From positions 491 to 64,490 of the forward strand of contig JARRKQ010000001.1 of the NCBI GenBank assembly GCA_037387885.1: a DNA stretch of 64,000 nucleotides. The letters run 5' to 3'. Positions within the stretch are counted from its first letter, which is position 1. Every line of letters starts with the position of its first letter. The notes below the pieces were generated by a model that saw nothing but the letters and a program-made list of their open reading frames with translations, ran no database searches and was not told where the DNA came from. The DNA comes from Alphaproteobacteria bacterium. GTDB taxonomy: Bacteria; Pseudomonadota; Alphaproteobacteria; JAPULJ01. The position numbers and the translations under genes are program-made. Of the stretch, positions 16,842 through 39,645 are shown in pieces.

Positions 16842-17681
16842 TCAAATCTCAATGGCGCTCGCCCGGTTGCGGATCGCGCGCAGCACGCTGTAGGCGGTGA
16901 GCGAGGAGGTCTTGGGGTTCTCCGGCAACGGGTTGCCGCGCAGCTCCATGGTCATCGAACCAAAAGCCCCGTCCGCTTCGATCAGATGGATATTGCCGCC
17001 GGCCTCCGGGTCGGCGATCAGCCGAACGGCGGTGTCGGTGAAGCCCACGCCCGCGAGGGCGACCGTGGCGGCGACATTGGCGTTCTTGGGATAGAGCCGC
17101 GCCGCTTCGTCGGCAGGGCCCGTATAGAGCTCGGTCGCTTCCGTGAGCGCGTTAAGATCGGCGACCTCCTCGGCGGGCGAGCCGGCCCAGGCCTGTGGCG
17201 GCTTGCGCGAAGTGTAGCGGACCTGCGTGAGCCCGCCTTCGCGCGCGGCCGCAAGCGCATCGACGCCGCCGATGGCGCCCGGCGCGATCAGCATCCGCCC
17301 GCTCTCCGCCGCGGCGAGGAGACGGTTGTAGAGCACGGGATCGGCAAGCGCGCCGACCGAGACCACCAGCAGATCATGGCCCTGTTCCAGCGCGGCGACA
17401 CCGTGCTCGGCCAGACCCTCATGGCCCGCGACCTCCACGACCAGTCCCGGCGGGGTGGGTAGTTGGTCGATGGCGCTCACCACGCTGACGGCGTCGCCGA
17501 CCTCGTCCTGGATCGCGGCCACGCGCGCCGGGCGCATGACGATGGCGGCGATCTGGGCGTGCTGCTCCTTGGCGAGGCGCGCATGGACATAGCGCCCGAT
17601 CGCGCCGTAGCCGATCAGGGCAATGTCCAGCGGCACGCTCGGGTCCACGCCTGGCTCCACATTGGGGTCGATGTCATCCAT
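16842..17681 (-). CDS. Aspartate dehydrogenase (NadX) family NAD(P)-dependent dehydrogenase
   Basis: LDIALIGYGAIGRYVHARL is a Rossmann motif, and the overall match is to L-aspartate dehydrogenase-like proteins. The start is ambiguous: ATG at 17717, ATG at 17681, or GTG at 17648. The last has a GGAG ribosome-binding site and avoids overlap with the upstream gene. Confidence 0.65.
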   Translation of the reverse strand: MDDIDPNVEPGVDPSVPLDIALIGYGAIGRYVHARLAKEQHAQIAAIVMRPARVAAIQDEVGDAVSVVSAIDQLPTPPGLVVEVAGHEGLAEHGVAALEQGHDLLVVSVGALADPVLYNRLLAAAESGRMLIAPGAIGGVDALAAAREGGLTQVRYTSRKPPQAWAGSPAEEVADLNALTEATELYTGPADEAARLYPKNANVAATVALAGVGFTDTAVRLIADPEAGGNIHLIEADGAFGSMTMELRGNPLPENPKTSSLTAYSVLRAIRNRASAIEI

Positions 17682-19227
17682 CTTTGGGCGTCGGCGGGCC
17701 GGCGAAGCGTTTCGCATACGGGCCGACCGCGGTCATGTCGATCTCGACGACGGCCGGGCCCTCGACCGCGAGCGCGCGGGCGAAGGCATCGGCGAAGCCG
17801 GCGGGATCGGACACGCGCTCGTGGGCCAGGCCCATCGAGCCTGCGAGCTTGGCGAAGTCGGGCGTGACGAGATCGGCGTAGATGCGCCGTCCGCCATACT
17901 GGGCGTCCTGGATGTTGCGGATCACGCCGTAACCGAGGTCGTTCATCAGGATGAGGGCGATGTCGGCCTTCTCCTGGACGGCGGTCGCGAGCTCGCCAAG
18001 GCCGAGCGCGAGCCCGCCATCGCCCACGAGGGCGACGGTCTTGCGCCCGTCATTGCCGAGCGCGGCGCCGATCGCCATGGCGAGGCCCTGGCCGATGCCG
18101 CCGCCCAGCGGGTGCACGCCCTGGCGCGGACCCGAAAGATCGACGTAGCGGTTGCCCCAGGTGCTGTTCGAGACGGTAATGTCGCGCACCCAGGCGGCAC
18201 CCTCGGGCATGGCGGCGCGCAGATCGTCGATGATGCGCGCGTAAGGGCCGAAGCCGTCGCGCAGGTCCTCGACCCCCGCGGTCTTGGCGGCCGCGAGGTC
18301 GTCCGCGAAGGCCGGATCGATCGCGGGGCCGTTGCCGAGCCGCTCGATCAGGCCCTGCAGGGCCAATTTGGCGTCGCCCGCGATGAAGAGATTGTTCGCG
18401 TAGGACAGGCCGTCCTTGGCCGGGTCGGCGTCGATGCGGGCGAGCGGCTGGGGCAGGGCGAGGGTGTTCTTCAGCGTCTCGTTGCCGCGCAGGCGCGTGC
18501 CCACGGCGGCCATGAGATCGACGGTCTTGTAGAAGTCGGCGACCGCCGGCACGGCGTTGAAGGCGCCGAGGCTCATCGGGTGGCCTTCCGCCACGACGCC
18601 GCGGCCGTTGACGCTGGTCACGATGCCGACGCCCATCTCGGCGAGTTGCCGAGCCTCGGTCGCGGCTGCCCTTGCGCCGCCGCCGAACCAGAAGAGCGGA
18701 CGCTTGGCGTCGCGGACCAGCGCTGCGAGGCGGTCGAGCGCGGCACTGTCGGGGACCGGCGGGTCGACGACCGGCGGCGTCATCGTGCCGGGCAGCGTGG
18801 TCTCGGCGCCCTGGACGTCGATCGGGATCTCGACGCTGACCGGTCCCGTGGGCGGGGTAAGGGCGGTCTTCACCGCTTCTTCGAGGACGGCGAGCGTGTC
18901 CTCGGGCCGCGTGATGCGGAAGAATTTCTTCGAGATCGCGTGCAGCATGCCGGGCTGATCCGGCGCTTCGTGGATGTATCCGCGGCCCTGGTCGAGAAAC
19001 CCGGTCTCGATCTGGCCGGTCAGATGCAGCACCGGCGTGCCGGCGGTGAGCGCCTCGACGAGGCTGCCGGCGGCGTTGCCGGCCGCAACGCCCGTAGAGG
19101 TCACGCCGACGCTGAGCCCGCCGGTCACCCGCGCGAAGGCGTCGGCCATGTTGAGCGCGCCCGCCTCGCCGCGCGCCGGTACGAAGCGCACGCGCCCGCG
19201 TGCGGCGATCGCATCGAGGATCGGCAT
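17674..19227 (-). CDS. Thiamine-pyrophosphate-dependent enzyme (acetolactate synthase / benzoylformate decarboxylase family). The annotated ORF lacks its N-terminal ~30 residues
   Basis: A TPP motif (GDGGLALGLGELATAVQEKADIALILMNDLGYGVIRN) and the central and C-terminal domains are present. The in-frame sequence upstream of the first ATG still encodes the conserved N-terminus (VGALVAAYLEACGVSAAFGVISIHN). It is closed by a TAA at 19318-19320 and has no in-frame start. See findings. Confidence 0.75.
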   Translation of the reverse strand: MPILDAIAARGRVRFVPARGEAGALNMADAFARVTGGLSVGVTSTGVAAGNAAGSLVEALTAGTPVLHLTGQIETGFLDQGRGYIHEAPDQPGMLHAISKKFFRITRPEDTLAVLEEAVKTALTPPTGPVSVEIPIDVQGAETTLPGTMTPPVVDPPVPDSAALDRLAALVRDAKRPLFWFGGGARAAATEARQLAEMGVGIVTSVNGRGVVAEGHPMSLGAFNAVPAVADFYKTVDLMAAVGTRLRGNETLKNTLALPQPLARIDADPAKDGLSYANNLFIAGDAKLALQGLIERLGNGPAIDPAFADDLAAAKTAGVEDLRDGFGPYARIIDDLRAAMPEGAAWVRDITVSNSTWGNRYVDLSGPRQGVHPLGGGIGQGLAMAIGAALGNDGRKTVALVGDGGLALGLGELATAVQEKADIALILMNDLGYGVIRNIQDAQYGGRRIYADLVTPDFAKLAGSMGLAHERVSDPAGFADAFARALAVEGPAVVEIDMTAVGPYAKRFAGPPTPKDG

Positions 19228-19410
19228 GTTGTGGATCGAGATGACGCCGAAGGCGGCGCTGACGCCGCAGGCCTCGAGATAGGCCGCGACCAGCGCGCCG
19301 ACCGTTGTACATCGACTTTACACATCCGTTCTGCGATTCGCTGCGCAGCGATCTCCTCGATGCCGCACGCCGCGCGGACGTACCTGTCCACGACGGCGGC
19401 GTTTACGCGG

Positions 19411-20229
19411 TCACCCAGGGGGCACGCGCTTCCAGACCTGCGGCTCGTGCGTCGCTTCGTCGATCTGCTGGACTTCGGAGGTGTATTCGATGACGAAGTC
19501 GTTGGGGTCGCGAAAATAGGAGAAGACGTTGTTGCCCGGCCCGTGCCGGCCGATGCCCCAGGCGACGGGAACTTCGTGCGACTTGAGGCGGCCGATGCCG
19601 CGCATCTGATCGTCGAGCGAGGGCATCTCGAAGGCGATGTGGTTGAGCGAGGCGTGCTCCGCGCGGTTGAAGGCGATCGAGTGGTGATCGGTGTTGCAGC
19701 GGATGAAGACCATCTGGTCCTCCGACCAGTCGCTGACCCGGAAGCCGAGCGCCGACTCGTAGAAGGCGAGGCAGGTCTCGAGCCGCGCCGTATTGAGCAC
19801 GACATGGCTGATCTTGCGGGGGGCGGCCGGGCGGTCTGGCGCGTCGGCATAGGTCTCGACCCCGGCGGAGATGCGAAGCAGCCGGTTGTCGGGATCGACG
19901 ACGGCGAAGCCGGTGCCGCCGCCGGGCGTTTCGTTGGGGCCGATCGGCTGCGCGATCGGCGTGCCGTCCGCGACGAGGCGGTCGTGCATTTCCTGCAGCC
20001 GTGTCTCGTCCGGCACGGCGAGCTTGATCCGGACGATGCCGCGGGTCTCGCGGTCGTGCAGCGAGAGGATGTGGTGCTCGGGCCCACTGCCGCGCAGATA
20101 GACCGCGCCGGGTTCGGTGTGCACGGTCTCCAGGCCCCAGCACTCGGTGTAGAAGGTCTCGCTCTGCGTCAGGTTCAGCCCGCCGAGACCGAGGCCGCGT
20201 AACCGAGTGACACCTACCTGATTGGTCAT
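19411..20229 (-). CDS. Two-domain VOC-family extradiol ring-cleavage dioxygenase (catechol 2,3-dioxygenase-like)
   Basis: 272 aa from MTNQVGVTRLRGLGLGGLNL. There are two VOC modules (HHILSLHDRE ... HHSIAFNRAEHASLNHIAFEM). The 439-aa ORF in the track is an upstream extension with Arg-rich sequence. Confidence 0.8.
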   Translation of the reverse strand: MTNQVGVTRLRGLGLGGLNLTQSETFYTECWGLETVHTEPGAVYLRGSGPEHHILSLHDRETRGIVRIKLAVPDETRLQEMHDRLVADGTPIAQPIGPNETPGGGTGFAVVDPDNRLLRISAGVETYADAPDRPAAPRKISHVVLNTARLETCLAFYESALGFRVSDWSEDQMVFIRCNTDHHSIAFNRAEHASLNHIAFEMPSLDDQMRGIGRLKSHEVPVAWGIGRHGPGNNVFSYFRDPNDFVIEYTSEVQQIDEATHEPQVWKRVPPG

Positions 20230-20243
20230 GTCGCGGGTTTCCC

Positions 20244-21071
20244 TTACGCCGAGCGCCGCTCGCCGCGATGGCCGAGCCATTCGGAGATCGTGCCCGCGGT
20301 CTCGACCACGGCGTCGCGGATCCAGGTTTCCAGATCGTCGCCGCTCAGGGTGGATTCGGGCGTGGTGATGTTGATCGCGGCGATTACCGCGCCCTCGGCA
20401 TCGAAGACCGGGGCAGCGACGCTGGCGATGCCGCGCTCGAAGTTCGAGCGGCTCAGCACGTAACCTTGCGCGCGGTCGCGGGCGAGCTGGGCGATCAGAT
20501 CGTCGAGTGAGGTTGCCGTCACCTCGCTGAAGGCCTCGAGCGGTTGGCCCTTGAAGCGCGCGCGGACGTCGTCGGCGGAAAGCTGCGAGAGCAGCGCGCG
20601 GCCCATCGAGGTCGCGTGCGCCGGCAGGCGCGAGCCGACCTGGACATGGCTGGTCAGCGCCTTCTGCACCGCGTGGCGTGCGACATAGACAATCTCGGTG
20701 CCGTCGAGGATCGCCAGATGCGCCGAGCATTGGGTACGGTCGCGCAAGGCCATCAGATGCGGCTGGGCGACCTCGACGATCTCGATCGACGAGAGGAAGG
20801 CAAAGCCGAGGCCGAGCACGCGCGGGCCGAGGCGGTAGGATTTCGTCGCCTCGTCGCGCACCAGATAGCCGAGCTCGGCGAGCGTGTAGGCGATGCGGAA
20901 GGCCGAGGATCGCGTGAGCCCCACCGCGCGCGCGAGGTCGGCGAGCGAAAGCTGCGGCGTCTCGGCGGTGAAGGCCGAGAGCATGGCAAGCCCGCGCGCC
21001 AGGCCCGGCACCATGTAGCGCTCATCCGCGCCGGCCGCATTCGCGTCCGCGTTGTGAGTGGCATCGGTCAT
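20244..21071 (-). CDS. IclR family transcriptional regulator
   Basis: 275 aa from MTDATHNADA. The HTH reads LSLADLARAVGLTRSSAFRIAYTLAELGYLVRD, and a C-terminal IclR effector domain follows. Its start overlaps the stop of the upstream hydrolase gene (ATGA). Confidence 0.85.
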   Translation of the reverse strand: MTDATHNADANAAGADERYMVPGLARGLAMLSAFTAETPQLSLADLARAVGLTRSSAFRIAYTLAELGYLVRDEATKSYRLGPRVLGLGFAFLSSIEIVEVAQPHLMALRDRTQCSAHLAILDGTEIVYVARHAVQKALTSHVQVGSRLPAHATSMGRALLSQLSADDVRARFKGQPLEAFSEVTATSLDDLIAQLARDRAQGYVLSRSNFERGIASVAAPVFDAEGAVIAAINITTPESTLSGDDLETWIRDAVVETAGTISEWLGHRGERRSA

Positions 21072-21889
21072 GCAGCAGCGCGCTCCTGTTCGGCGAGGAA
21101 ATCGGCAAGCACGGTGTTGAAGCGTTCCGGCGCCTCGACATACGGCAAGTGACCCAGCCCATCGAGCAGCACGAAGCGGCCGTTCACGAGCGCATCGGCG
21201 ATACGGCGGCCGCCCTCGGGCGGGGTGACGATGTCTTCGCCGCCGCTGACGACGAGCGCCGGCGCGTCGCAGCCGTCGAGGTCGGCGAAGATGTTGCCTT
21301 GCGAGAGCGTGCGCGCGGCCTGGGCATAGCCGTCGGGCCGCACCTGGCGCATGACGCCGCGCACGGCTTCGAGCACGTCCTCGCCCGTATTCGGGCCGAC
21401 CAGCTTGGCCGCGCGGGCTTCGGTCATCTTGGCGGGGCCGTCGTTGTAGACGCCGTCGAGGCGCATCTTGAGCGACGTCTCCCGCGTCTCGGGATCGGCC
21501 TCCGCGTGGCCGATGGCGGGATCGGAGAGGAGAAGCGAACGCACCCGGGCGCGGTGGCGGCCCGCGAAGGCGCCGGCGAAGAGCGAGCCCAGTGAATTGC
21601 CCACCAGATGCGCGCTCTCGATATCGAGCGCATCGAGCAGGCGGGCCAGCGCATCGGCATAGGCGGCGGTGCCGGGGCACTCGCCGTCGAGATCGCCCGA
21701 GCCGCCATAGCCCGGCGCATCCCAGGCGATCGCGCGATGGTGCGCGCCGAAATGATCGAGCTGGTTGGTCCAGCCAGCCGATCCCGAGCCGATGCCGTGC
21801 AGGAAAACGATGGGCGCGCCGCTGCCGGCCTCGCGGTAGGCGATGGTGAGGCCGTTGGCGTCGATCTGCTTCAGGGCGTGTTCGCTCAT
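21068..21889 (-). CDS. Alpha/beta-hydrolase, meta-cleavage-product (C-C bond) hydrolase-like
   Basis: The N-terminal region reads IVFLHGIGSGSAGW, and there is a GNSLG nucleophile elbow. It is about 273 aa. Confidence 0.8.
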   Translation of the reverse strand: MSEHALKQIDANGLTIAYREAGSGAPIVFLHGIGSGSAGWTNQLDHFGAHHRAIAWDAPGYGGSGDLDGECPGTAAYADALARLLDALDIESAHLVGNSLGSLFAGAFAGRHRARVRSLLLSDPAIGHAEADPETRETSLKMRLDGVYNDGPAKMTEARAAKLVGPNTGEDVLEAVRGVMRQVRPDGYAQAARTLSQGNIFADLDGCDAPALVVSGGEDIVTPPEGGRRIADALVNGRFVLLDGLGHLPYVEAPERFNTVLADFLAEQERAAA

Positions 21890-21901
21890 GGTCTCAAATC
21901 C

Positions 21902-22663
21902 TCAGTTGAAGACGAAGCCGCCGTTCACCGGCAGAAGCTGGCCGGTGACGAAAGCGGCGCCGTCCGACAGCAGGTAGACGACCGAACCGACCACATCCTC
22001 GGGGTCCTGGGCGCGGTGCATGGCGCGGCCCTCGACGTAATGGTCGTGGCGGTCCTGGGGGACGTATTCGGTGGCCTCGACGCGGGTGAGGCCGGGGGCG
22101 ATCGCGTTGACGGCGATGTTGTCGGGGCCGAGCTCGCGGGCGAGCGCCCGGGTCATGGCGATTACCGCGCCTTTGCTGGAGACGTAATGCAGCAGCTTGG
22201 GCGCGCCCCAGAGCGCGGTGTCGGAGGCGATGTTGACAACGCGCGCACCGTTCACGCCTTTCCTGAGCAGCGGCGCGCAGGCCTTCACCGCGAGCCAGAG
22301 CCCGCGGACATTCACCTGCATGACGCGGTCCCAGGTCTCGATGTCGATCTCCTCGAACGTCTTGCCGCCGATGCCGGTGGCGATGGCGCCGTTATTGACC
22401 AGTCCGTCGATGCGCCCGCAGCGTGTCTCGACCGTTTCGGCCATCGCCGTGACGCTGCCCGGATCGCCGAGGTCGAGCGGCACGAAGAGCGTCTCGTAGC
22501 CGGCATTGCCCAGGGCATGGGCGGTATCGCGGCCCCAGTCCTCGTTGATCTCGGCGATCACGACCATCTCGGCCCCGGCCTCGGCAGAGGCTTCCGCGAA
22601 GGCGCGGCCGAGCCCGCGCCCCGCGCCGGTCACCACGATCACCTTGCCGTCGAGCGCGCCCAT
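21902..22663 (-). CDS. SDR family oxidoreductase
   Basis: TGAGRGLG is the cofactor-binding motif and YVSSK the catalytic YxxxK. 253 aa. Confidence 0.85.
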   Translation of the reverse strand: MGALDGKVIVVTGAGRGLGRAFAEASAEAGAEMVVIAEINEDWGRDTAHALGNAGYETLFVPLDLGDPGSVTAMAETVETRCGRIDGLVNNGAIATGIGGKTFEEIDIETWDRVMQVNVRGLWLAVKACAPLLRKGVNGARVVNIASDTALWGAPKLLHYVSSKGAVIAMTRALARELGPDNIAVNAIAPGLTRVEATEYVPQDRHDHYVEGRAMHRAQDPEDVVGSVVYLLSDGAAFVTGQLLPVNGGFVFN

Positions 22664-22669
22664 GGGCGG

Positions 22670-23068
22670 TCAGGCCTGCTTTTCTAGGTGCCAGTCATGC
22701 TCGGAGATGTCGACGACCACGCCGTTCACGTCCTTGACCTTGGTCTCGACCTCGACCCCGGGCACGTCGGGCAATTCCATGAAGTATGCGCCGCCATTCG
22801 CCTCGATCTTTTTCATCGTCTCGTCGAGGTCGTCGACCACGAAGCCGAAATGATGCACGCCCGCCCAGTCGGGGCCGTTGATCATCGAGGGCTGGCCCTC
22901 GGGGAATTTGAGCAGCGTCAGGTTCATCACGCCGTCGGACAGCATGATCGTGTCGCCAATCTCGCTCTCCGACTCGTAGACGCGGCGCAGATCGAACGCC
23001 GCCTCGTAGAAGGCGGCAGCCTTCTCGAGATCGGGGACTTGCATCGCGATGTGGCGCAGCTTCGCCAT
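22670..23068 (-). CDS. VOC family protein (glyoxalase/bleomycin-resistance/dioxygenase fold)
   Basis: 132 aa. MAKLRHIAMQVPDLEKAAAFYEAAFDL is a typical VOC N-terminus. Confidence 0.75.
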   Translation of the reverse strand: MAKLRHIAMQVPDLEKAAAFYEAAFDLRRVYESESEIGDTIMLSDGVMNLTLLKFPEGQPSMINGPDWAGVHHFGFVVDDLDETMKKIEANGGAYFMELPDVPGVEVETKVKDVNGVVVDISEHDWHLEKQA

Positions 23069-23090
23069 CGATCGGCTCGCTCCTTCGGCC

Positions 23091-23636
23091 TTACTTCTTC
23101 GGCCGCTTGATCTTGGAGAGCGGGTGGTCCGGCGGATAGGTCGGCGTCTGCGGCTTAGAGTTGCCGAGCATCACGCACATCAGCGCTTCTTCCTGGCCGT
23201 CGTTCAGCAGACCGCGATAGAGGCCCGGCGGCACCGAGATCAGGTCGCGCTCCTTCAACACCGTCTCGAAGCGCTCGCCGTCCTGCTCGACGAAGAGGCG
23301 GATGCGGCCGCGCAGCATGAAGAACACCTCCTCCACGTCGTCATGAACGTGGATCGGGCCTTCGCAGCCGGCGGGCAGCACCATGGTCGAGAAGGTGAAG
23401 TGCTCGGCTGGCACGGTGTTCTGGTCGGACGAAATGCCCGTGCCGCCGGTGCCCATGTAGCGCATCTGGGCGCGGCGGTATTTCGGGTCGTAGTCGGCCT
23501 GGAACTTCAGCGCGTCCCAGTCGTAGCGGCGCGTCTCGTAGCGCGCGATGCGGCTCTCGACCCAGTCGCCGAGGCTCATATCGGCCGGTTTGCCGCCGAC
23601 CGTCTGGTCGTCCTTGAGTGCGGTCTGTGCGCTCAT
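23091..23636 (-). CDS. Cupin-domain protein
   Basis: 181 aa. A cupin motif is present (GPIHVHDDVEEVFFMLRGRIRLFVE). Confidence 0.7.
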   Translation of the reverse strand: MSAQTALKDDQTVGGKPADMSLGDWVESRIARYETRRYDWDALKFQADYDPKYRRAQMRYMGTGGTGISSDQNTVPAEHFTFSTMVLPAGCEGPIHVHDDVEEVFFMLRGRIRLFVEQDGERFETVLKERDLISVPPGLYRGLLNDGQEEALMCVMLGNSKPQTPTYPPDHPLSKIKRPKK

Positions 23637-23698
23637 GATCGCTTCGCTCCTTGCTTTGATCGCAATGTGTTGGTCGTCGGTGTTGTCGCTTTCGGCGG

Positions 23699-24751: not shown

Positions 24752-24788
24752 GGCAAGCCTCGTGTGCCCGTCATATTCGTATTCGGGT

Positions 24789-25745: not shown

Positions 25746-26542
25746 GCCGCCTCGATTTCGTCGCCGATGTGCAGCAAGCCCATCAGCTTGGTGATGTAGT
25801 CGCCCATCTTGGGATGGCCGCGCCGGGCGATCGGCTTCTCGCGCTCGGGCATTTCGACGGCGATCTCCTCGATGATGCGGCCGGGACGTGACGACATCAC
25901 CAGGACGCGGTCAGAGAGCGCCACCGCCTCGATCAGATCGTGGGTGATCAGGAAAGCGGTCTTGCCCTCGTCTTTGAGGGTGCGCGCGAGATCGGTCTGG
26001 AGGACCATCTTGGTCTGCGCATCGAGGGCGGAGAAGGGCTCGTCGAGCAACAGCACGTCGGGGTCCATCGCCATGGTGCGCGCGAGTGCGGCGCGCTGGC
26101 GCATGCCGCCGGAAAGTTGGTGGGGGTAGGCATTGGCGAATTCGCCCAGCTTGTATTTCGCGATCAGATCGAGGGCGACCGTGCGGCGGCTCTCCCTGGC
26201 CACGCCCTGGATCTCCTGGCCGAGTTCGACATTGTCGCGGATCGTCCGCCAGGGCAGCAGCAGGTCCTTCTGCAGCATGAAGGCGACGTGCGAGTTGGGC
26301 CCGTCGACCTCTTCCCCGTCGACCAGCACCGTTCCTTCGTTCGGGCGGTCGAGCCCGGAGCCGAGATTGAGCAGCGTGCTCTTGCCGCAGCCGCTCGGCC
26401 CGATCAGCGAGACCACCTCGCCGTCGGCCAGCGCCAGCGAGACGTCCTCGACCGCCGTGATCACTGGATCGCGGCCGTCACCCGAATTGCGGTTGCCGAA
26501 GCGCTTGGTGACCTGACGGAACTCCAGGCGGGAGGTTGCCAT
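25742..26542 (-). CDS. ABC transporter ATP-binding protein, NitT/TauT family
   Basis: Walker A GPSGCGKST, signature LSGGMRQRAALAR and Walker B LLLDEPFSALD. GGGAGAG lies upstream of the ATG. Confidence 0.9.
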   Translation of the reverse strand: MATSRLEFRQVTKRFGNRNSGDGRDPVITAVEDVSLALADGEVVSLIGPSGCGKSTLLNLGSGLDRPNEGTVLVDGEEVDGPNSHVAFMLQKDLLLPWRTIRDNVELGQEIQGVARESRRTVALDLIAKYKLGEFANAYPHQLSGGMRQRAALARTMAMDPDVLLLDEPFSALDAQTKMVLQTDLARTLKDEGKTAFLITHDLIEAVALSDRVLVMSSRPGRIIEEIAVEMPEREKPIARRGHPKMGDYITKLMGLLHIGDEIEAA

Positions 26543-26560
26543 GGGTGCTCTCCCGTCCGC

Positions 26561-26962
26561 TCAGCCGCCGCTGCCGGCAGGCTCGCCGGCGCCGAGGCGC
26601 TGCATCACGGACTTGAAGGAGGTTTCGGTCCAGGGATTGCCATCGGGATCGGCGGGCCCGGTCTCGTTCAGGCCGGCGATGATGGCATCGAGCTCGTAGA
26701 TTTCCTTGGTGAACAGCGCTTCGAGCGCATCGCCCAGCGCGTTCTCATAGTCGGTCGGCGGGGCGGGCCGGGTCTGCCAGCGGATCAGCGCCGGCGCGTC
26801 GTAGCGCTCGATCGACTGGGCATTGCCCTTGTTGGGACCGTCGGCCTTGCTGTCGAGCTGGCCGGCAGCCGCTTTCGCCTCCATTGCGAACCGCAGGTGG
26901 GGATTGAAGTCGGACACGTTCGCGACCCTCCCGGTGCTTGCCGGCTCGGCGCACCCTGCCAC
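26561..26962 (-). CDS. Hypothetical protein of unknown function in the oxygenase/transporter operon
   Basis: There are no recognisable motifs. Third-codon-position GC is high, consistent with coding. A shorter 107-aa version starting MEAKAAAGQ at 26884 is possible. Confidence 0.45.
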   Translation of the reverse strand: MAGCAEPASTGRVANVSDFNPHLRFAMEAKAAAGQLDSKADGPNKGNAQSIERYDAPALIRWQTRPAPPTDYENALGDALEALFTKEIYELDAIIAGLNETGPADPDGNPWTETSFKSVMQRLGAGEPAGSGG

Positions 26963-26987
26963 CGATGCCGGCCCGTGTGCTTCATGG

Positions 26988-27037
26988 TAGTTTTGTATAT
27001 AAAACTATTGTTCTTATACAAAACACATTAACAGGCC
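26988..27037. repeat. AT-rich ~50-bp element with internal inverted repeats (GTTTTGTATA ... TATACAAAAC); left copy of a pair flanking the Rieske ferredoxin gene
   Basis: The sequence is GTAGTTTTGTATATAAAACTATTGTTCTTATACAAAACACATTAACAGG. It is about 75% identical to the reverse complement of the 27601-27655 element. Spurious ORFs containing YKTIVLI are translations of this motif. Confidence 0.5.
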
Positions 27038-27095
27038 GGTGCGAGAGAATCAAGGGCCGGATTTCGCCGTGCGAACCGGGCGGATCAGGCGAGCT

Positions 27096-27413
27096 TCACG
27101 AAGATAGCTTCACGAAGATATCGTCGCCCTCGACCTTGACCTGATAGACGGTGAGGTCCTCCTCGGCGGGCGGGGCGAGGCACTTGCCGGTCCTGATGTC
27201 GAACTTGGCGGCATGGAGCGGGCACTCGACCTGGCCGTCCTCGACGAACCCCTCGCTCAGCATCACGAAGGCATGCGGGCAGACATTCTCGGTCGCGAAG
27301 AACTCCTCGCCGATCTTGAAGATCGCCACCAGCTTGTCGCCGACTTCTGCCGCCGCGGGCTCGTCCTCGTCGACCTCGCTGGTGCTCGCGACCTTGTGCC
27401 ATTCTTCCGCCAT
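27096..27413 (-). CDS. Rieske-type [2Fe-2S] ferredoxin (oxygenase electron-transfer component)
   Basis: 105 aa from MAEEWHKVASTSEV. CPHAFVMLSEG...CPLHAAKF is the Rieske motif. The 162-aa ORF in the track carries an unlikely N-terminal extension. Confidence 0.8.
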   Translation of the reverse strand: MAEEWHKVASTSEVDEDEPAAAEVGDKLVAIFKIGEEFFATENVCPHAFVMLSEGFVEDGQVECPLHAAKFDIRTGKCLAPPAEEDLTVYQVKVEGDDIFVKLSS

Positions 27414-27600
27414 CGCTCTCCTCGTATCTGGTTGCTGTCCCGCCAGCGTGCCCCGTATCCGGCCCTGATGCTGATGGCAGGACGTCGGATCAGAAGTATA
27501 GGTCTCGCGCCGCTGGGTAAACAGAGGCCGCGCCGGTGACGGCGCCGCGCTTTGGGACCGCTCTCGGTCCCGCGGCTTGGGCATTGATCGGCGGAGCGCT

Positions 27601-27655
27601 GCCTGTTAGTCTGTCTAAAATAAGAACGATCGTTTTGTATATCAAACATTCTTCG
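27601..27655. repeat. AT-rich element in inverted orientation relative to 26988-27037; contains the perfect palindrome AACGATCGTT
   Basis: The sequence is CCTGTTAGTCTGTCTAAAATAAGAACGATCGTTTTGTATATCAAACATTCTTCG. It lies in the divergent promoter region between the ferredoxin gene and the substrate-binding-protein gene. The CCTGTTA end mirrors the TAACAGG end of the other copy. Confidence 0.5.
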
Positions 27656-27818
27656 ACATATCCCGTTTCAGGCCGTTTCGCACTTTGAAGCCAATGGAGT
27701 AGTGTCGGGGCAGGCGTGCGGGTCGCGCCGCGGAACAGCATTGCGCCGACGGCGAAGCTTCAACGTCGGACGCCAGCATGACGGCAGATCAGCCGGACGA
27801 CAAAGGGAGAGTCTCAGC

Positions 27819-28814
27819 ATGCTCAATCGACGGACGACGACGGTGGCGCGCAAAGCGCTCATCGGGATCGCGGGCGCAGCGCTCGCGATGACGCTCGGCG
27901 CCGGCTCGGCCAGCGCGGAGAAAGTGACCTATCTGTTTCCGGCGCCGCCGATCCTGCCGGCGTTCGGGCCGATCCAGATCGCCAAGGGCAAGGGTTACTA
28001 CAAGGCCGAGGGCCTCGAGGTGGTGTTCCAGCGCGGCAAGGGCGGCGTCGACGTCGCCAAGCAGGTCGGCGCCGGCAATGCGCAGCTCGGCGGCGGACTG
28101 GCCGACGGGCCGATCATCGTGCGCGCCCAGGGCGTGCCGGTGCGCTCGGTCGCTTCATTTGGCGGCCGTGGCTTCATGCAGCTCGTGGTGCGCGCCGATA
28201 GCGGCATCAAGTCGCCCAAGGATCTGAAGGGCAAGACCATCTCGGTCATGTCCTACCAGGACACGACCTTCTATGCGTTGCGCGGCATGTTGGCGAGCGA
28301 GGGGCTCACCCTGAAGGACGTGAAGGCGATCGCGGTCGGCCCGCGCAACGTGCCGACGATGGTGATCGAGAAGAAGGCCGTGGCCTGCGCCTGCGTGCCC
28401 GACTGGATCCCGCCCTTCCACCGCGCCAAGGTGAAAATCAACATCATCAAGTCGGAGGACTACTTCCCGCACATGGCGCAAGCCATTCTGGCCTCCGACG
28501 ACATCATCAAGAAGAATCCCAAGATGGTCGCCGCCTTCATCCGCGCCTCGCTGAAGGGCATGAAGGACATCATGGACAACCCCAAGGCGGCGGCCGCCGA
28601 TTTCGCCAAGTTCGTGCCGCTGTGGAAGGGCAAGGAAGGCTATATCACCGGCGTCTTCACCTACTACGCCCAGCTCGTCTATCCGGGGCAGAAGAAGCTC
28701 GGCGAGATCAATGTCGAGCGCCTGACCAAGCTGCAGGACTTCTATGTGAAGCAGGGCATCGTGCGGAAGCGGGTGCCGGTCGCCGATCTCTACACGAACC
28801 AGTTCATCAAGTAG
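27819..28814 (+). CDS. ABC transporter substrate-binding protein, NMT1/THI5-like (NitT/TauT family)
   Basis: A signal peptide (MLNRRTTTVARKALIGIAGAALAMTLGAGSASA) is followed by a periplasmic binding fold. AAAGGGAGAG lies upstream of the ATG at 27819. Confidence 0.85.
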   Translation: MLNRRTTTVARKALIGIAGAALAMTLGAGSASAEKVTYLFPAPPILPAFGPIQIAKGKGYYKAEGLEVVFQRGKGGVDVAKQVGAGNAQLGGGLADGPIIVRAQGVPVRSVASFGGRGFMQLVVRADSGIKSPKDLKGKTISVMSYQDTTFYALRGMLASEGLTLKDVKAIAVGPRNVPTMVIEKKAVACACVPDWIPPFHRAKVKINIIKSEDYFPHMAQAILASDDIIKKNPKMVAAFIRASLKGMKDIMDNPKAAAADFAKFVPLWKGKEGYITGVFTYYAQLVYPGQKKLGEINVERLTKLQDFYVKQGIVRKRVPVADLYTNQFIK

Positions 28815-28837
28815 TGGGCCGACCATCGGTCGAAACG

Positions 28838-28870
28838 AAAACCCCGGCCTTAGCGCCGGGGTTTTTTGTT
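28838..28870 (+). terminator. Rho-independent terminator after the substrate-binding-protein gene
   Basis: AAAACCCCGGCCTTAGCGCCGGGGTTTTTTGTT has a 7-bp GC stem followed by a T6 run. Confidence 0.75.
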
Positions 28871-28941
28871 GGGGCCACTTACGTATCCCTCCTCCTCTGA
28901 AGAGGGGGAGGGGATGAGAGAGGTCCCGAACGAATTTCGCG

Positions 28942-29469
28942 TCAGAACGGCACCGAGATCGTGTCGAGCACGCCCTCGGCGTTGACCAGATCGACGCGCT
29001 TCCAGGCGATGCGCCAGCCGCCGCCGGACCGGCGCAGGCAATGGCGCGCGGTGGCGCCGTAGACGCGCTGCTCGCTGAGGCGGTGCTCGAGCATCACGAA
29101 CTTCGACCGCACCACCGCTTCCTTACCGCCGTCGGCGGTGCTTTCGAGCGTCGTGCCGCTGACCACGCGCACGGTCGCGATCGGCGGCGAGACGGCGTGG
29201 CCCGTCCCGTCGGTGAGGCGGCGCACGCGCGCCTCCATCAGCATCCGGTCGTCGTAGAAGATCGAGATCTCGTTCAGCGGATCGGTCTGCTCGGGCCGGT
29301 GCGGCGCCCAGTAGTAGGCATCGTCCGCGTAGAGCGCGAGCCAGTCCTCGTAGCGGGCTTCGTCGAGCAGGCGCGCTTCCTCCAGCACCAGCGCGGTGAC
29401 CGTCGTCATCGCCTCGGGCGACAGCCGCACCGAGCTGTCTCGCGGCTTGGCTTTGACCTCAGTCGTCAT
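28942..29469 (-). CDS. Aromatic-ring-hydroxylating dioxygenase beta subunit
   Basis: 175 aa with an NTF2-like fold. EARLLDEARYEDWLALYADDAYYWAP is typical of small subunits. It overlaps the stop of the alpha subunit gene. Confidence 0.8.
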   Translation of the reverse strand: MTTEVKAKPRDSSVRLSPEAMTTVTALVLEEARLLDEARYEDWLALYADDAYYWAPHRPEQTDPLNEISIFYDDRMLMEARVRRLTDGTGHAVSPPIATVRVVSGTTLESTADGGKEAVVRSKFVMLEHRLSEQRVYGATARHCLRRSGGGWRIAWKRVDLVNAEGVLDTISVPF

Positions 29470-30824
29470 TCGGCGGCCTCTGCGCTAGCGTTGGTGGCCG
29501 GGCGCATGTAGTCGAGCCAAGCCTTGAACTGGTTGCGGATGTGGATCTCGCTGGTGCCGTGATCGCCGTGGCGGCCGCCGCGCTCGTCGTCCACGTCATG
29601 CCCCTCGCCGCGGCCGAGATGCAGCCACTCCGTACCCTCGCTCTGCAGGCCGTCGCGGATTCGGCGGTAGATCTCCAGATCGTCGGTCAGGATCTGCGAG
29701 GCCGGCGAGTTGATCGCATTGGCGAAGCGCACCGTGTCCTGGAACATCGCCTCGGGCGCGCCTTTGAGGCGGAAGGAATAGATGTGTACCTCGGTCTTGT
29801 CGGGCGCCACCGGCAGGATGACGCGGAGCTGGCGGAAGGACGACATGAAGGTGAGGTTCGGATAGACGATCGTGTTGAAACGGGCGACGCTCAGGATCTC
29901 GCGCGTGCGCTTGGCGCCCTGCGCCGCTTCGAGCGCGTCGCGGTATTCGACGAAGACCGGATCGTCGGAGGCGGCGAGCAGGCGCTCGTCGTCGTGATAG
30001 TCGCCCATGTATGAGTGGCCGCCGTCATAGGCCCAGACGCCGACATTGTCCCAGATCTTGGTGAGCACGCCGTTCTGCGTCATCTGCCGCACGGCGATCT
30101 CGCCGGCACCGTCGGTGGGCGCGTCCATGCGCTGCTTGGCGGCGGTGTCGATCGACGAGGCGTGCACGAAGGCCGGATGCATCAGGTCGTTGACGTTCTC
30201 GATATAGAGCTTCCAGTTGCCGTCGTAGGTGTGCTTGAAAATGCCGCCCGCGACCTCGATCTCGCCGCCCGGCGCGCGGTCGACCATGTCATCGAAGGAC
30301 GTCGTGATGTCGCCCAGCCACTCTTCGAGTGCAGGACCGTCTGCGGCGAGGCTCGCAAAGACGAAGCCGCGATAGATCGCCTGGCGGGCGACGGGCCGTA
30401 ATCCCAGCGAACCGCGCTCCTTCTCGAAGCGCTCGTCATAGCCTTCCTGGCGCGGCACGCCGATCAGCGCGCCGTCCGTCCCGAAGGTCCAGCCGTGATA
30501 GCCGCATTGGAAATGCTTGGCGTTGCCCGTCTCCGCGGCGCAGACCATGGCGCCGCGATGGGTGCAACGGTTGTGCAGCACGCGTACATTTCCGTCGCGG
30601 CCCCGCACCATCAGGACGGGCTGGCGGCCGAGGCGGGTGGCGTAGAAGTCGCCGGGCTTCGCCACCTGGCTTTCGTGGCCGACGAAGAGCCAGGCGCGGC
30701 CGAACAGGCGCTCGAGCTCGAGCTCGAAGATATCCGGGTCGGTATAGACGCTGCGGTGGACGCGGTCGGGCTGGATCAGCGCCGCGAGGTCGGGCGTCGG
30801 CCGGTGGGTGAGGGGACGGTTCAT
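29466..30824 (-). CDS. Rieske aromatic-ring-hydroxylating dioxygenase alpha subunit (alpha/beta type)
   Basis: Rieske motif CTHRGAMVC...CGYHGW. The catalytic domain carries the mononuclear-iron His/Asp region. The start is MNRPLTHRPTP at 30824. Confidence 0.85.
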   Translation of the reverse strand: MNRPLTHRPTPDLAALIQPDRVHRSVYTDPDIFELELERLFGRAWLFVGHESQVAKPGDFYATRLGRQPVLMVRGRDGNVRVLHNRCTHRGAMVCAAETGNAKHFQCGYHGWTFGTDGALIGVPRQEGYDERFEKERGSLGLRPVARQAIYRGFVFASLAADGPALEEWLGDITTSFDDMVDRAPGGEIEVAGGIFKHTYDGNWKLYIENVNDLMHPAFVHASSIDTAAKQRMDAPTDGAGEIAVRQMTQNGVLTKIWDNVGVWAYDGGHSYMGDYHDDERLLAASDDPVFVEYRDALEAAQGAKRTREILSVARFNTIVYPNLTFMSSFRQLRVILPVAPDKTEVHIYSFRLKGAPEAMFQDTVRFANAINSPASQILTDDLEIYRRIRDGLQSEGTEWLHLGRGEGHDVDDERGGRHGDHGTSEIHIRNQFKAWLDYMRPATNASAEAAE

Positions 30825-30914
30825 GGGCAGGCACTCCATCCTGGCTGCGGAACGCCGAAGAACATATATGTTCGAATCTGGCATGCGCCGGGCATGGCGT
30901 AAAGGCGAGCCATA

Positions 30915-32036
30915 TCACGCCGGCATCAGCGATCCGAGATCGCCGGGCCGGATCGCCCAGGCAGGCAGTGCGTCGGCGGGGGCATGTGGGCCGGCCTCCT
31001 TGGCGGGGAAGCCCTCGAGGACGAGATTGTCGCCGAAGCTCGCCCCCTGGCGGACCAGCGCGCCCGCTTTGATCAGGCAATTGGCGCCGACCACCGAATT
31101 GTCGCAGACGATCGCGGCGGGCTCGACGACGGTGCCCGCCCCGATGCGGCAGCCATGGATCATCGCGCCGGGACCGATCACCACCCCGTCGGCGAGCTCC
31201 AGCGTGTTGTCGGGCAGCAGGTGGAGGACCGCGTTCTCCAGAATCTGGACGTCGGCGCCGATGCGCACGGGCCCGTGGCTGTCGCCGACGATGCGCACGC
31301 CCGCGCCGATGATGCTCCGCGCCCCGATCACGACGTCGCCGGTGATCTCGGCGCTATCGAAGAGCACGGCGTCGGAGGCGATCTCGGGGGACTTGTCGTT
31401 GTAGCGATAGATCTGCGCCATGGTCGGTCCTGCGTTTGTCGATTCGCGGTAGGTCTCGGTCGGAACGTCGGGCAGCGAGAGATCGCCGCCCCGCAGCGCA
31501 GTAAGCCGCGCGATATCGGCCTCGTTCGCGGCGCGGATCGTCCGGCCGGGACGGCCGACGACGACGGCGTTGTCGGGCACGGTCATGCCTTCGGGGATCA
31601 GCGTGCCCTCGCCGGTGAAGACGCGGTCGCCGAGCACTGCACCCGGCATGATGACGGTCGCGTTGCCGATCTCGCAGAGGTCGCCGATCCGCGCGCCGAT
31701 CACCCGGGCGAGGTGGCCGAAGACGGTGCGTCGGCCGACCGAGGCCGGCATGTCGGGTCGGCCGACGATCACCCCGGTTTCCAGCAGCGCCGTGCCCGCG
31801 CCGATGGCGACGCCGCCGCCTGCGGCGCGCACCGCCGTGCCCTGGCCCAGATAGGCACCGGGGCCGATCTCGATCGGGCCGATCACTCGGGCGGAGGCCG
31901 CGATGCGCGCGCCGCCGTGGCTCCGCCGTTCGTCGTGGTCGGGTTGCTCGAAGGCCATCGCCCCAAAATCCGCCGTAGCGTCCGCCATTCCGCCCGTGCC
32001 TTTGATAGCACGGCCGTCGTGTGGGGCGGATGACAA
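30915..32036 (-). CDS. Tandem left-handed beta-helix (hexapeptide repeat) protein, two gamma-carbonic-anhydrase/PaaY-like modules
   Basis: Hexapeptide-repeat patterns ([LIV]GxxxxIG) recur in both halves. The second half begins MAQIYRYNDKSPEIASDAVLFDSAEITGDVVIGARSIIGAGVRI. An alternative start is at 31988 (MADATADFG). Confidence 0.65.
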   Translation of the reverse strand: MSSAPHDGRAIKGTGGMADATADFGAMAFEQPDHDERRSHGGARIAASARVIGPIEIGPGAYLGQGTAVRAAGGGVAIGAGTALLETGVIVGRPDMPASVGRRTVFGHLARVIGARIGDLCEIGNATVIMPGAVLGDRVFTGEGTLIPEGMTVPDNAVVVGRPGRTIRAANEADIARLTALRGGDLSLPDVPTETYRESTNAGPTMAQIYRYNDKSPEIASDAVLFDSAEITGDVVIGARSIIGAGVRIVGDSHGPVRIGADVQILENAVLHLLPDNTLELADGVVIGPGAMIHGCRIGAGTVVEPAAIVCDNSVVGANCLIKAGALVRQGASFGDNLVLEGFPAKEAGPHAPADALPAWAIRPGDLGSLMPA

Positions 32037-32103
32037 TCAGATAGTTGACTCAGGCAACTAATTTGATTGAAATGGACGTGCGACCTTGAGTATTGGCGGT
32101 GCA

Positions 32104-34444: not shown

Positions 34445-34546
34445 CGGCCGCGACCCTAGCGGAATCAGGGACCGATGCAAACGCCGGCCGATTGAGCGCC
34501 GTTCGATTGAACAGTGGGCCGCCCCCGTGCCAATCTCGGCGCCGCC

Positions 34547-39486: not shown

Positions 39487-39539
39487 GTCTGCTGCTCCTC
39501 GCCGCGCCCGTCGCGAAAGGATTGAATCTCGCTCGAAAC

Positions 39540-39582
39540 GCTATATCATAACATTTAATTGATAGTGTTATATCATAACAAT
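39540..39582. promoter_or_regulatory. Putative Zur box pair in the znuA / zur-znuCB divergent promoter
   Basis: There are two copies of TATATCATAACA (TATATCATAACAT at 39543-39555 and TTATATCATAACA at 39568-39580). The second copy forms the imperfect palindrome TGTTATATCATAACA. The region is AT-rich and immediately upstream of both the znuA and zur start codons. Confidence 0.55.
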
Positions 39583-39645
39583 CTTTGTCAACCGCTGTTG
39601 AAACGACGCTGGACGGCCAGACGGCGGAGAAGGGATCGAACAGAA

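Follow-up and report, generated by a model that had tools for sequence, protein, structure and literature searches.

A widely conserved Rieske oxygenase operon with an HTH_62 partner protein as a tentative candidate for bacterial kynurenate degradation

We analyzed a stretch of 64,000 nucleotides of contig JARRKQ010000001.1 from an alphaproteobacterial genome assembly (hereafter, the window), in which a first-pass annotation had placed an aromatic catabolic island with two Rieske oxygenases. Because the G+C content of the window is approximately 66%, reading frames were chosen by third-position GC, and the window proteins were then scanned against Pfam and NCBIfam; the Pfam scan covered the whole 64 kb, including every gene outside the region of interest. 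All of the genes that had been listed for this region were found in their places in these scans, and they fall into two modules, i.e., module A (16842–27413, minus strand, plus a divergent binding protein gene), which carries an alpha-only Rieske oxygenase and is the main subject here, and module B (28942–33054), which carries an alpha/beta Rieske dioxygenase. The features of module A are, in the direction of transcription of its minus-strand genes:

27617–27645, minus strand, sigma-70-like promoter match upstream of the ferredoxin gene (TTGATA-17-TATTTT; consensus match only)
27096–27413, minus strand, Rieske ferredoxin, first gene of module A (Pfam Rieske 76.5 bits, Rieske_2 66.9 bits)
26561–26962, minus strand, HTH_62 small protein, open reading frame (ORF) of 133 aa (PF20552, 92.9 bits against a gathering score of 27)
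25742–26542, minus strand, ATPase of an ABC importer of the NitT/TauT type (ABC_tran 111 bits)
24789–25745, minus strand, permease of an ABC importer of the NitT/TauT type (BPD_transp_1 103 bits)
23699–24751 (longest ORF to 24808), minus strand, alpha-only Rieske oxygenase, 350 aa (Rieske 76.3 bits, VanA_C 63 bits)
23091–23636, minus strand, cupin (Cupin_2 41 bits)
22670–23068, minus strand, single-domain VOC protein, 132 aa (Glyoxalase 58.6 bits)
21902–22663, minus strand, first SDR, SDR-1 (adh_short_C2 194.8 bits)
21068–21889, minus strand, alpha/beta-fold hydrolase (Abhydrolase_1 86.4 bits)
20244–21071, minus strand, IclR regulator (IclR_C 151 bits, HTH_IclR 55 bits)
19411–20229, minus strand, two-domain type I extradiol (VOC) dioxygenase (Glyoxalase 78 bits, two stretches)
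17674–19317, minus strand, thiamine pyrophosphate (TPP)-dependent enzyme of the PRK07064 type (NF005470, 811.9 bits against a cut-off of 495)
16842–17717 (likely start 17681), minus strand, enzyme of the L-aspartate dehydrogenase (AspDH) family, last gene of module A (NF009828, 322 bits against a cut-off of 177)
27819–28814 (longest ORF from 27702), plus strand, NMT1/SsuA-like periplasmic binding protein with a signal peptide (NMT1 139.7 bits)

The 13 minus-strand genes are separated by intergenic gaps of −44 to 178 nt and, therefore, appear to form a single operon. The ATPase gene overlaps the start of the permease gene by 4 nt, and the IclR gene overlaps the stop codon of the hydrolase gene by 4 nt on the same strand; this regulator gene, around which the other genes had been described, is not a divergent hub and lies inside the operon. 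The promoter motif upstream of the ferredoxin gene was matched once, as compared to 0.2 matches expected, and an operator search of the promoter region (27400–27710) found no inverted repeat of at least 10 nt. A scan of the window found no composition (GC) shift, tRNA or mobility gene at the locus; no Rfam element was found in the window, so that the NMT1 binding protein could not be tied to thiamine or a riboswitch. Synteny with a relative of 84% identity extends to both flanks of the window, one of which carries genes for HemN, a cytochrome c and a MarR protein, and the other genes for a TPR-2-oxoglutarate (2OG) oxygenase and Fpg. These observations suggest a stable chromosomal locus rather than a recent transfer, which argues against the view of the region as a horizontally acquired island.

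The window proteins were mapped onto 82 loci (80 genome loci fetched and several metagenome contigs; numbered here with the prefix L), many of which ended at contig edges, and further members of the canonical cluster were found by clustering all ORFs of the related loci. The module A core, which comprises the Rieske ferredoxin, HTH_62 protein, alpha-only oxygenase, SDR, cupin, hydrolase, in-operon IclR regulator, extradiol dioxygenase, TPP enzyme and AspDH, was found in more than 80 genomes, including those of Paraburkholderia, Burkholderia, Cupriavidus, Klebsiella pneumoniae, Acinetobacter baumannii, Novosphingobium and roseobacters. As the order of the core genes is kept in 66–82 of the 82 loci, the arrangement is far beyond chance. 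The oxygenase was present in all 82 loci, the SDR in 80, the cupin in 78, the IclR regulator in 76 (in the same position and on the same strand), the hydrolase in 73, the TPP enzyme in 70, and the AspDH in 66. The ferredoxin, which had been regarded as an orphan, is a conserved component that heads the cluster in 72 of the loci. Far fewer loci carry the ABC components (9–14), the alpha and beta subunits of the module B dioxygenase (2), the left-handed beta-helix (LbH) protein of module B (1), or the small VOC protein (1).

Clustering of the ORFs also identified a second SDR (SDR-2) between the IclR and TPP genes in 59 loci, an aldehyde dehydrogenase after the AspDH in 58, and a VOC protein of approximately 320 aa in 47; a ferredoxin reductase is found at the 3′ end of the cluster in 66 loci. 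SDR-2, the aldehyde dehydrogenase and the reductase thus belong to the canonical cluster, and none of them was found in the window by the whole-window Pfam scan or by tblastn with cluster-type proteins; the earlier statement that no ferredoxin reductase is present in the window was thereby borne out. Annotated copies of the cluster, which carry generic gene names only, were found in A. baumannii (NZ_CP043459, FZ921_RS18385–18445), K. pneumoniae (QYQ60_RS24620–24685), Novosphingobium resinovorum, Cupriavidus pauculus, and a marine Pseudosulfitobacter. The A. baumannii and K. pneumoniae copies are organized in two blocks, one with the order ferredoxin-HTH62-oxygenase-SDR-(IclR)-VOC-reductase and the other with the order cupin-hydrolase-SDR2-AspDH-aldehyde dehydrogenase-TPP; the first block has the appearance of the standard trio of dioxygenase, dihydrodiol dehydrogenase and ring-cleavage enzyme. 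PA3504–PA3514 of P. aeruginosa may be an orthologous locus, which one preprint simply terms an operon. A full-text literature search found no functional assignment of module A, and an exact-match look-up of the oxygenase returned no record. While Rieske-initiated meta-cleavage operons are a well-known kind, this cluster is thus unassigned in the literature and databases searched, and it is distinguished by its HTH_62 partner, cupin, TPP enzyme, and AspDH.

The oxygenase has more than 2000 homologues of approximately 350 aa, mostly 65–70% identical. Its Rieske motif (C63-P-H65 ... C82-W-Y-H85) is invariant in 74 sequences. The residues of the mononuclear iron site (N170, D173, H176, and H181; N-x2-D-x2-H-x4-H) are also invariant, and so are two further residues, D297 and D318, which are candidates for the carboxylate ligand. 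No Ring_hydroxyl_B gene adjoins the gene for this alpha-only enzyme in the window or in the annotated clusters. The best solved relatives are phthalate 4,5-dioxygenase, CarAa, and DdmC, with the alignment confined to the Rieske domain. While clustering with non-aromatic oxygenases such as KshA or GbcA would have counted against the first-pass annotation, the alpha-only enzyme scores best with the phthalate, carbazole and dicamba oxygenases, with KshA and NdmA scoring below these, and the alpha/beta enzyme of module B is IadD-like (see below). Together with an intact extradiol dioxygenase, the intact cluster and iron motifs of the oxygenase uphold the designation of the locus as an aromatic catabolic system.

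The Rieske ferredoxin, for which the nearest NCBIfam models are the AndAb and HcaC ferredoxins, is predicted to be the electron carrier for the alpha-only oxygenase; this ferredoxin is encoded in the window, where no reductase gene was found, and a reductase is encoded in the related loci. A plasmid copy of the cluster in Cupriavidus pauculus (L176, 23112–24068) encodes a PDR/VanB-type one-protein reductase, with neither a Rieske ferredoxin nor an FAD reductase, suggesting that oxygenases of this clade can be served by different redox partners.

The 133-aa protein, previously listed as unknown, belongs to Pfam family HTH_62 (PF20552); its true start is probably located near 26917, which would result in a protein of approximately 118 aa. 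An HTH_62 gene is located directly upstream of the oxygenase gene in 57 loci, and also in A. baumannii, K. pneumoniae, Novosphingobium, and Cupriavidus. The HTH_62 profile identified 379 representative clusters among 1.8 billion proteins, nearly all of them stand-alone proteins of 70–136 aa. A distant member of 73 aa is encoded 2 nt upstream of an oxygenase of the same clade, and in L172 (4993–8125) a 214-aa HTH_62 protein is encoded 4 nt upstream of a Rieske/VanA_C oxygenase of this clade; the latter pair is preceded by an NMT1 binding protein gene, followed by a gene for RidA (an enamine/imine deaminase), and accompanied by no other module A genes, suggesting that the HTH_62-oxygenase pair is a portable unit. 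A single fusion of the oxygenase and HTH_62 was found (P0099), and it represents weak evidence, because the linker resembles a read-through intergenic region and the contig has only 4.7x coverage. The conserved core of HTH_62 (WQTR-x-A-P-x-x-YE ... LN-x-G ... P-x-G-x-x-W) contains no Cys or His; in an AlphaFold 2 model, the core consists of three helices with a predicted local distance difference test score (pLDDT) of >90, and a structure search with this model returned no significant fold match in the PDB. HTH_62 is, therefore, a conserved partner of this Rieske oxygenase clade. Because the operon already contains an IclR regulator and because the pair looks translationally coupled, we lean toward a role as an accessory component of the oxygenase rather than as a small regulator.

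Several other enzymes encoded by module A also retain their catalytic residues. SDR-1 is usually encoded directly after the oxygenase. The window extradiol dioxygenase is a diverged member of the family of approximately 320-aa VOC proteins found in the other clusters; across 48 sequences (the window protein and the 47 VOC proteins of this family), H142, H197, E248, H183, and Y238 are invariant, and these represent the His/His/Glu Fe(II) triad as well as the catalytic His and Tyr. Its best solved relative is 3b59, a protein of unknown function. The cupin, which is the most conserved enzyme of the cluster (approximately 70% identity), has invariant H96, H98, and E102 residues (H-x-H-x3-E), with the His of motif 2 replaced by an invariant R141, and shows weak similarity to the quercetinase QueD and to 3-hydroxyanthranilate dioxygenase. 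The hydrolase has an invariant Ser-Asp-His triad (S99 in GNSLG, D219, and H247), consistent with its previous description as a meta-cleavage-type hydrolase; that substrate type is less well matched, however, as the best scores were obtained with an esterase (91.6 bits) and 3-oxoadipate enol-lactonase (84.6 bits; 131 bits with the PcaD model), with the meta-cleavage hydrolase BphD slightly lower (73 bits), and the scores against all named models are far below the curated cut-offs. The IclR protein scored 232 bits against the PcaR/PobR subfamily model, for which the cut-off is 285 bits.

The TPP enzyme gene has an anomalous start. A TAA stop codon (19320–19318, minus strand) directly precedes the conserved N-terminus (TTVGALVAAYLEACGV...), and the first in-frame ATG, GTG or TTG is found at 19227, by which point 30 codons of the conserved N-terminal domain have already passed; the ATG located at approximately 19311 is one base out of frame. 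The TPP gene of the relative L004, which is 82% identical, has a normal ATG 27 codons upstream. This pattern points to either a 1-nt indel (sequencing or assembly error, real frameshift, or pseudogene) or a non-canonical start. The last enzyme of the operon aligns with the AspDHs of T. maritima and A. fulgidus (1J5P and 2DC1), including the NIH and ENPKTS motifs, and, with a score above the curated AspDH cut-off, is predicted from its sequence to resemble NadX/AspDH. Its gene differs from those for NadX-type enzymes in that it is not located beside nadA or nadC and is embedded in a catabolic operon, which suggests that it may reduce an imino acid derived from the pathway rather than act in NAD biosynthesis.

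The gene encoding the NMT1 binding protein is transcribed away from module A and toward module B. In related clusters, the corresponding gene is located between those for the ATPase and the permease (HTH62-ATPase-SBP-permease-oxygenase, where SBP is the binding protein); in the window lineage, it thus appears to have moved out of the operon and to have been inverted. Homologues of this binding protein with 63–65% identity also adjoin IadDE-like genes in L096–L098, which are without the core cluster. Related clusters use ABC or TRAP systems, TTT binding proteins, MFS transporters, porins or TonB receptors for uptake, and the module A substrate is very probably an anion; the exchange of ABC, TRAP, TTT, and MFS systems points to an organic carboxylate rather than a sulfonate. 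The binding protein scored 76.8 bits against the SsuA family (cut-off 163.5) and 48.7 bits against TauA (cut-off 304), the permease scored 110.6 bits against SsuC (cut-off 347), and the ATPase scored 208 bits against TauB (cut-off 357); the matches of the ATPase to the SaoA and NtrCD models and of the permease to TauC and SaoP are likewise below the cut-offs. Of the initial suggestion of an anionic aryl-sulfonate or aryl-carboxylate, the anionic and carboxylate parts are, therefore, favored by the exchange of transporters, while the sulfonate part is not, since genes for desulfonation or sulfite handling are absent and the SsuA and TauA scores are far below their cut-offs.

Module B consists of the following genes:

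30915–32036, minus strand, tandem LbH protein (gamma-carbonic-anhydrase/PaaY-like), first gene of the operon (Hexapep 81 bits)
29466–30884, minus strand, dioxygenase alpha subunit (Ring_hydroxyl_A and Rieske domains)
28942–29469, minus strand, dioxygenase beta subunit (Ring_hydroxyl_B)
32086–33054, plus strand, MarR-GNAT fusion, divergent from the other genes of module B (MarR_2 44 bits, Acetyltransf_1 60 bits)

The alpha subunit matches PDB entries 7yls/8h2t with 369 bits and 9o71 with 372 bits, and is 40% identical to IadD; residues N210, L211, H216, and H221 in the numbering of 7yls match the published residues of IadD, identifying 7yls as IadD. The alpha subunit aligns end to end with IadD of the Variovorax iad system, with conservation of the iron ligands H216, H221, and D377 as well as N210 and R329; as in that system, a beta subunit follows, and a MarR-domain regulator adjoins (compare the repressor IadR). 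In contrast to iad, five of the seven non-ligand residues of the indole-3-acetic acid (IAA) pocket are changed (L211V, F251N, H311F, K322M, and Y362F), the IadC-type reductase is absent from the whole window, as are the remaining iad genes, the regulator has its MarR domain fused to a GNAT domain, and the operon begins with an LbH gene; the LbH protein scored 143 bits against the gamma-carbonic-anhydrase model (cut-off 250). Module B can thus be likened to the iad family by its homology to IadDE, while proper membership is not established.

The neighborhoods of the module B dioxygenase were counted in 80 metagenome loci. The alpha and beta genes remain paired in 76 of these, while the LbH gene is kept in five (closest relatives only), and the MarR-GNAT gene in two (L091 and L093), where it is kept beside the LbH-dioxygenase unit; a MarR-type gene is also located directly upstream of the dioxygenase in L096. 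Most of the 80 loci are without the core cluster, which accompanies the dioxygenase in the six closest metagenome loci. The MarR-GNAT fusion is a probable regulator of module B, which appears to be an IadDE-like unit separate from module A and probably acts on another aryl- or indolyl-carboxylate.

A different combination of related genes was observed in L096 (3235–8747) and in matching stretches of L097 and L098, all of which are without module A. An IadDE-like pair 72–75% identical to that in the window is followed there by a VanA-type Rieske oxygenase (31% identical to that of module A), an SDR, and a convergent NMT1 binding protein gene; two Rieske oxygenases and this binding protein thus recur together in another form. 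The 132-aa VOC gene of module A is located between the cupin and SDR genes; of the 82 genome loci, L003, which is the closest relative, is the only one that shares it, and weak homologues (47%) are located near IadDE-like genes in a few metagenome loci.

Module A shares features with several characterized systems. In the carbazole system (CarAa alpha3, CarAc, CarAd, CarB, and CarC), as in module A, an alpha-only oxygenase of the phthalate family is served by a Rieske-type ferredoxin, and an extradiol dioxygenase and an alpha/beta hydrolase follow. CarAa is among the best solved matches of the module A oxygenase (93 bits with the family profile), with the similarity confined to the Rieske domain. 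However, the car system is without HTH_62, cupin, TPP enzyme, and AspDH, while module A is without the anthranilate branch; the SDR after the module A oxygenase suggests lateral rather than angular dioxygenation, unlike car. The two-component oxygenases for phthalate and vanillate share the Rieske and VanA_C architecture, and the Cupriavidus copy uses a reductase of the PDR/VanB type; the module A clade differs in its obligatory-looking HTH_62 neighbor, which is not described for those enzymes, and in a catalytic domain that is only distantly related.

A correspondence by enzyme class was found with the bacterial kynurenate (“quinoline”) pathway, which operates, for instance, in strains of Delftia/Comamonas and P. 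fluorescens. The classical route leads from kynurenate through the 7,8-dihydrodiol and 7,8-dihydroxykynurenate to 5-(3-carboxy-3-oxopropenyl)-4,6-dihydroxypicolinate, its oxopropyl form, and 5-(2-carboxyethyl)-4,6-dihydroxypicolinate, and its enzymes are kynurenate 7,8-hydroxylase, kynurenate-7,8-dihydrodiol dehydrogenase, and 7,8-dihydroxykynurenate 8,8a-dioxygenase. The named intermediates imply additional reductase, decarboxylase, and aldehyde dehydrogenase steps. Previous reports bear out the names 7,8-dihydroxykynurenate, 5-(3′-carboxy-3′-oxopropyl)-4,6-dihydroxypicolinate, and 5-(2′-carboxyethyl)-4,6-dihydroxypicolinate, and have shown that pseudomonads turn kynurenate into glutamate and alanine; a 2024 review references the breakdown of kynurenate to 1961 biochemistry only. 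In our literature search, “kynurenic acid” and “Rieske” occurred together in no paper except an unrelated review. The enzyme classes required by the kynurenate pathway match the conserved genes of module A one for one, with a carboxylate as substrate and amino acids as end products; those for the hydroxylase, the dihydrodiol dehydrogenase, and the extradiol dioxygenase are all present and look catalytically intact, which is a match of class only. As the pathway has been known since the early 1960s through its biochemistry only, with no genes assigned in the literature searched, sequence identities cannot be compared. A. baumannii, which has been reported to use kynurenic acid as a sole carbon source, carries the full module A cluster. 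In addition, a kynureninase gene is located inside the L002 cluster, and a gene of the cyclase/formamidase family is located beside the L088 cluster.

We, therefore, propose that module A may be one operon for the uptake and complete breakdown of an aromatic carboxylate. That this substrate is kynurenate, or a very close 4-hydroxyquinoline-2-carboxylate, is plausible while falling short of an even chance, and we put the probability that module A represents the long-missing genetic basis of the bacterial kynurenate pathway at roughly 0.33. According to this proposal, the ABC importer (the permease, the ATPase, and the displaced NMT1 binding protein) would take up the acid, and a three-component Rieske dioxygenase, consisting of the alpha-only oxygenase with HTH_62, the ferredoxin, and a reductase encoded outside the window, would form the cis-dihydrodiol. 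SDR-1 would re-aromatize the dihydrodiol to a catechol, the ring of which would be opened by the extradiol dioxygenase; SDR-2 of the canonical cluster could then act as the enone reductase for the side chain, the TPP enzyme as a 2-oxoacid decarboxylase, and the aldehyde dehydrogenase of the canonical cluster as the enzyme oxidizing the resulting aldehyde to 5-(2-carboxyethyl)-4,6-dihydroxypicolinate. The cupin, as an Fe(II) dioxygenase, may cleave the C4-C5 enol bond of the dihydroxypicolinate, the hydrolase may split the 2-oxoglutaryl amide into 2-oxoglutarate and iminoaspartate, and the AspDH may reduce iminoaspartate to L-aspartate, with the IclR protein as the putative pathway regulator. 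The products 2-oxoglutarate and aspartate would account for the reported glutamate and alanine. The two blocks of the A. baumannii and K. pneumoniae copies may thus correspond to the three upper enzymes of the classical pathway and to the lower steps, respectively. The proposal also accommodates the earlier hint, drawn from the TPP and amino-acid-dehydrogenase-like enzymes, at an aryl-2-oxoacid or amino-substituted intermediate; a 2-oxoacid and an amino or imino intermediate are reasonable and fit the proposed pathway, with the fit being one of enzyme class.

Several observations weigh against the assignment to kynurenate. The tie between the cluster and kynurenate consists of an enzyme-class match and a growth correlation, and since A. 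baumannii grows on many aromatics, the link between growth and the cluster is a correlation only; the kynureninase and cyclase-family neighbors were each found in one locus, which does not amount to systematic support. The oxygenase has a catalytic domain without a close characterized relative, so that its regiochemistry cannot be read from sequence, and the nearest solved relatives of SDR-1 are FabG-like enzymes and pyridoxal 4-dehydrogenase, not cis-diol dehydrogenases of the BphB type. The window copy is without SDR-2 (the reductase-type SDR), the aldehyde dehydrogenase, and the ferredoxin reductase, as are several other copies with ABC importers (L002 and L089); two mapped steps would, therefore, need genes located elsewhere, or the window variant would handle a related compound. 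The roles proposed for the cupin, hydrolase, and AspDH are derived from chemical reasoning and fall outside the published scheme, and the order of the pathway steps and the EC activities follow work of the 1960s and pathway maps, while the in-vitro AspDH activity of related enzymes rests partly on older literature.

The general evidence is also compatible with a pathway of the same Rieske/extradiol type for another (hetero)aromatic carboxylate, such as xanthurenate, quinaldate, a hydroxyquinoline, a naphthoate-type bicyclic acid, or an isatinate-like indole/oxindole acid, in which the TPP enzyme and AspDH would process compound-specific 2-oxoacid and amino acid fragments; we regard this as a serious if doubtful possibility. 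The synteny, the catalytic residues, and the carboxylate-type transporters apply to it equally, and the absence of SDR-2 and the aldehyde dehydrogenase from some variants (the window, L002, and L089) suggests that the lower steps are not fixed. The gene beside L088 may be read in the same direction, as the cyclase family includes isatin hydrolases. In the lineage of the window, moreover, the cluster is located beside an IadDE-like enzyme, and iad loci have been shown to degrade IAA as far as anthranilate; however, this lineage (2 of 82 genome loci, plus the metagenome loci closest to it) is the only one in which the core is joined by the IadDE-like module. The kynurenate scheme, in turn, uses every conserved enzyme class of the cluster, and we know of no other documented pathway that does so with a bona fide AspDH-family enzyme included. 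A wider departure would be that the whole 16.8–32 kb region is one catabolic island, with both oxygenases, a shared ferredoxin, the importer, and the LbH protein all acting in the same pathway. The modules adjoin in the window and in the relatives L003, L004, L083, and L093–L095, the single ferredoxin might serve both oxygenases given that no reductase is present in the window, and the binding protein gene lies between the modules and has homologues beside IadDE-like genes in L096–L098, where a different VanA-type Rieske gene and an SDR gene are also found. Nevertheless, a single island with two oxygenases, as initially described, is unlikely; of the 82 genome loci with the core, just 2, both of this lineage, have the alpha/beta dioxygenase as well, and 1 has the LbH gene, the metagenome loci with the dioxygenase outside this lineage are without the core cluster, the modules form separate transcription units with their own regulators (the in-operon IclR and the divergent MarR-GNAT fusion), and, judging by the ancestral order (HTH62-ATPase-SBP-permease-oxygenase), the binding protein belongs to module A.

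Two further explanations would change the chemistry of the first step. If the alpha-only enzyme were a demethylase or hydroxylase of a non-aromatic compound (Stc2, GbcA, CntA, or KshA type), the cluster would degrade an aliphatic or alicyclic amine or acid; this is in line with the VanA_C catalytic domain, which is common to demethylases, with the resemblance of SDR-1 to lactol and hydroxy-acid dehydrogenases and of the hydrolase to lactonases, and with the RidA gene adjoining the distant HTH_62-oxygenase pair in L172. It appears quite improbable, however, as the core of the cluster includes a type I extradiol dioxygenase with an intact catalytic site, the best-scoring solved relatives of the oxygenase act on aromatic rings, with KshA and NdmA lower, and the GbcA and sterol-monooxygenase models were matched only marginally. 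Import of an aryl- or alkyl-sulfonate through the NitT/TauT system, followed by desulfonation by the oxygenase, is suggested by the best named matches of the importer, which are components of SsuABC, TauABC, and SaoAPX, yet it is very hard to reconcile with the data, since all of these matches fall well short of the curated cut-offs, the Pfam scan of the whole window found no gene for a sulfite exporter, a sulfite dehydrogenase, or an Xsc-type enzyme in or beside the cluster, and most orthologous clusters carry TRAP, TTT, and MFS systems and porins.

Outside the two modules, the window contains other gene groups. The minus-strand genes at 2032–12910 encode a family III CoA-transferase, a three-subunit molybdenum hydroxylase (XDH/CODH type), the large subunit and B12-binding small subunit of a methylmalonyl-CoA-mutase-like enzyme, and hydantoinase/oxoprolinase B and A, followed by a PaaG-like enoyl-CoA hydratase and a MarR gene; this block resembles a further uncharacterized catabolic cluster, which may act on an N-heterocycle. 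The genes at 52157–60796 encode an isochorismatase-family hydrolase, an enzyme of the phosphoenolpyruvate (PEP)-mutase/isocitrate-lyase family, small and large aconitase-type (LeuCD-like) subunits, and a GntR/UTRA regulator, followed by a Zn-dehydrogenase and a TRAP transporter (DctPQM), representing a cluster for organic-acid utilization. At 33062–35452, the longest ORFs of the TPR and 2OG-Fe(II) oxygenase (minus strand) and of an Fpg/Nei glycosylase (plus strand) overlap by approximately 270 nt, probably due to an over-called start, as the TPR protein has 443 aa in L083 as compared to 574 aa for the window ORF. An ordinary zinc uptake set (ZnuA, a Fur-family, Zur-like regulator, the ZnuC ATPase, and the ZnuB permease) is located at 38518–41802.

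If the proposed kynurenate pathway is correct, the assignment would give genes to three orphan EC activities, and the operon would also encode a previously undescribed lower half of the pathway, in which the cupin and hydrolase lead to 2-oxoglutarate and iminoaspartate. The mesophile “aspartate dehydrogenase” would then have a physiological role outside NAD biosynthesis, as an iminoaspartate reductase, and HTH_62 would represent an accessory component that had not been recognized in Rieske oxygenases before. Far from being confined to a single metagenome bin, the cluster is found in K. pneumoniae, A. baumannii, the Burkholderia cepacia complex, Cupriavidus, and numerous bacteria from soil and marine habitats. 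Kynurenate is an immunomodulatory and neuroactive tryptophan metabolite of the host; an operon for its degradation that is shared by rhizosphere bacteria and two major pathogens of hospitals would, therefore, matter for host-microbe chemistry.

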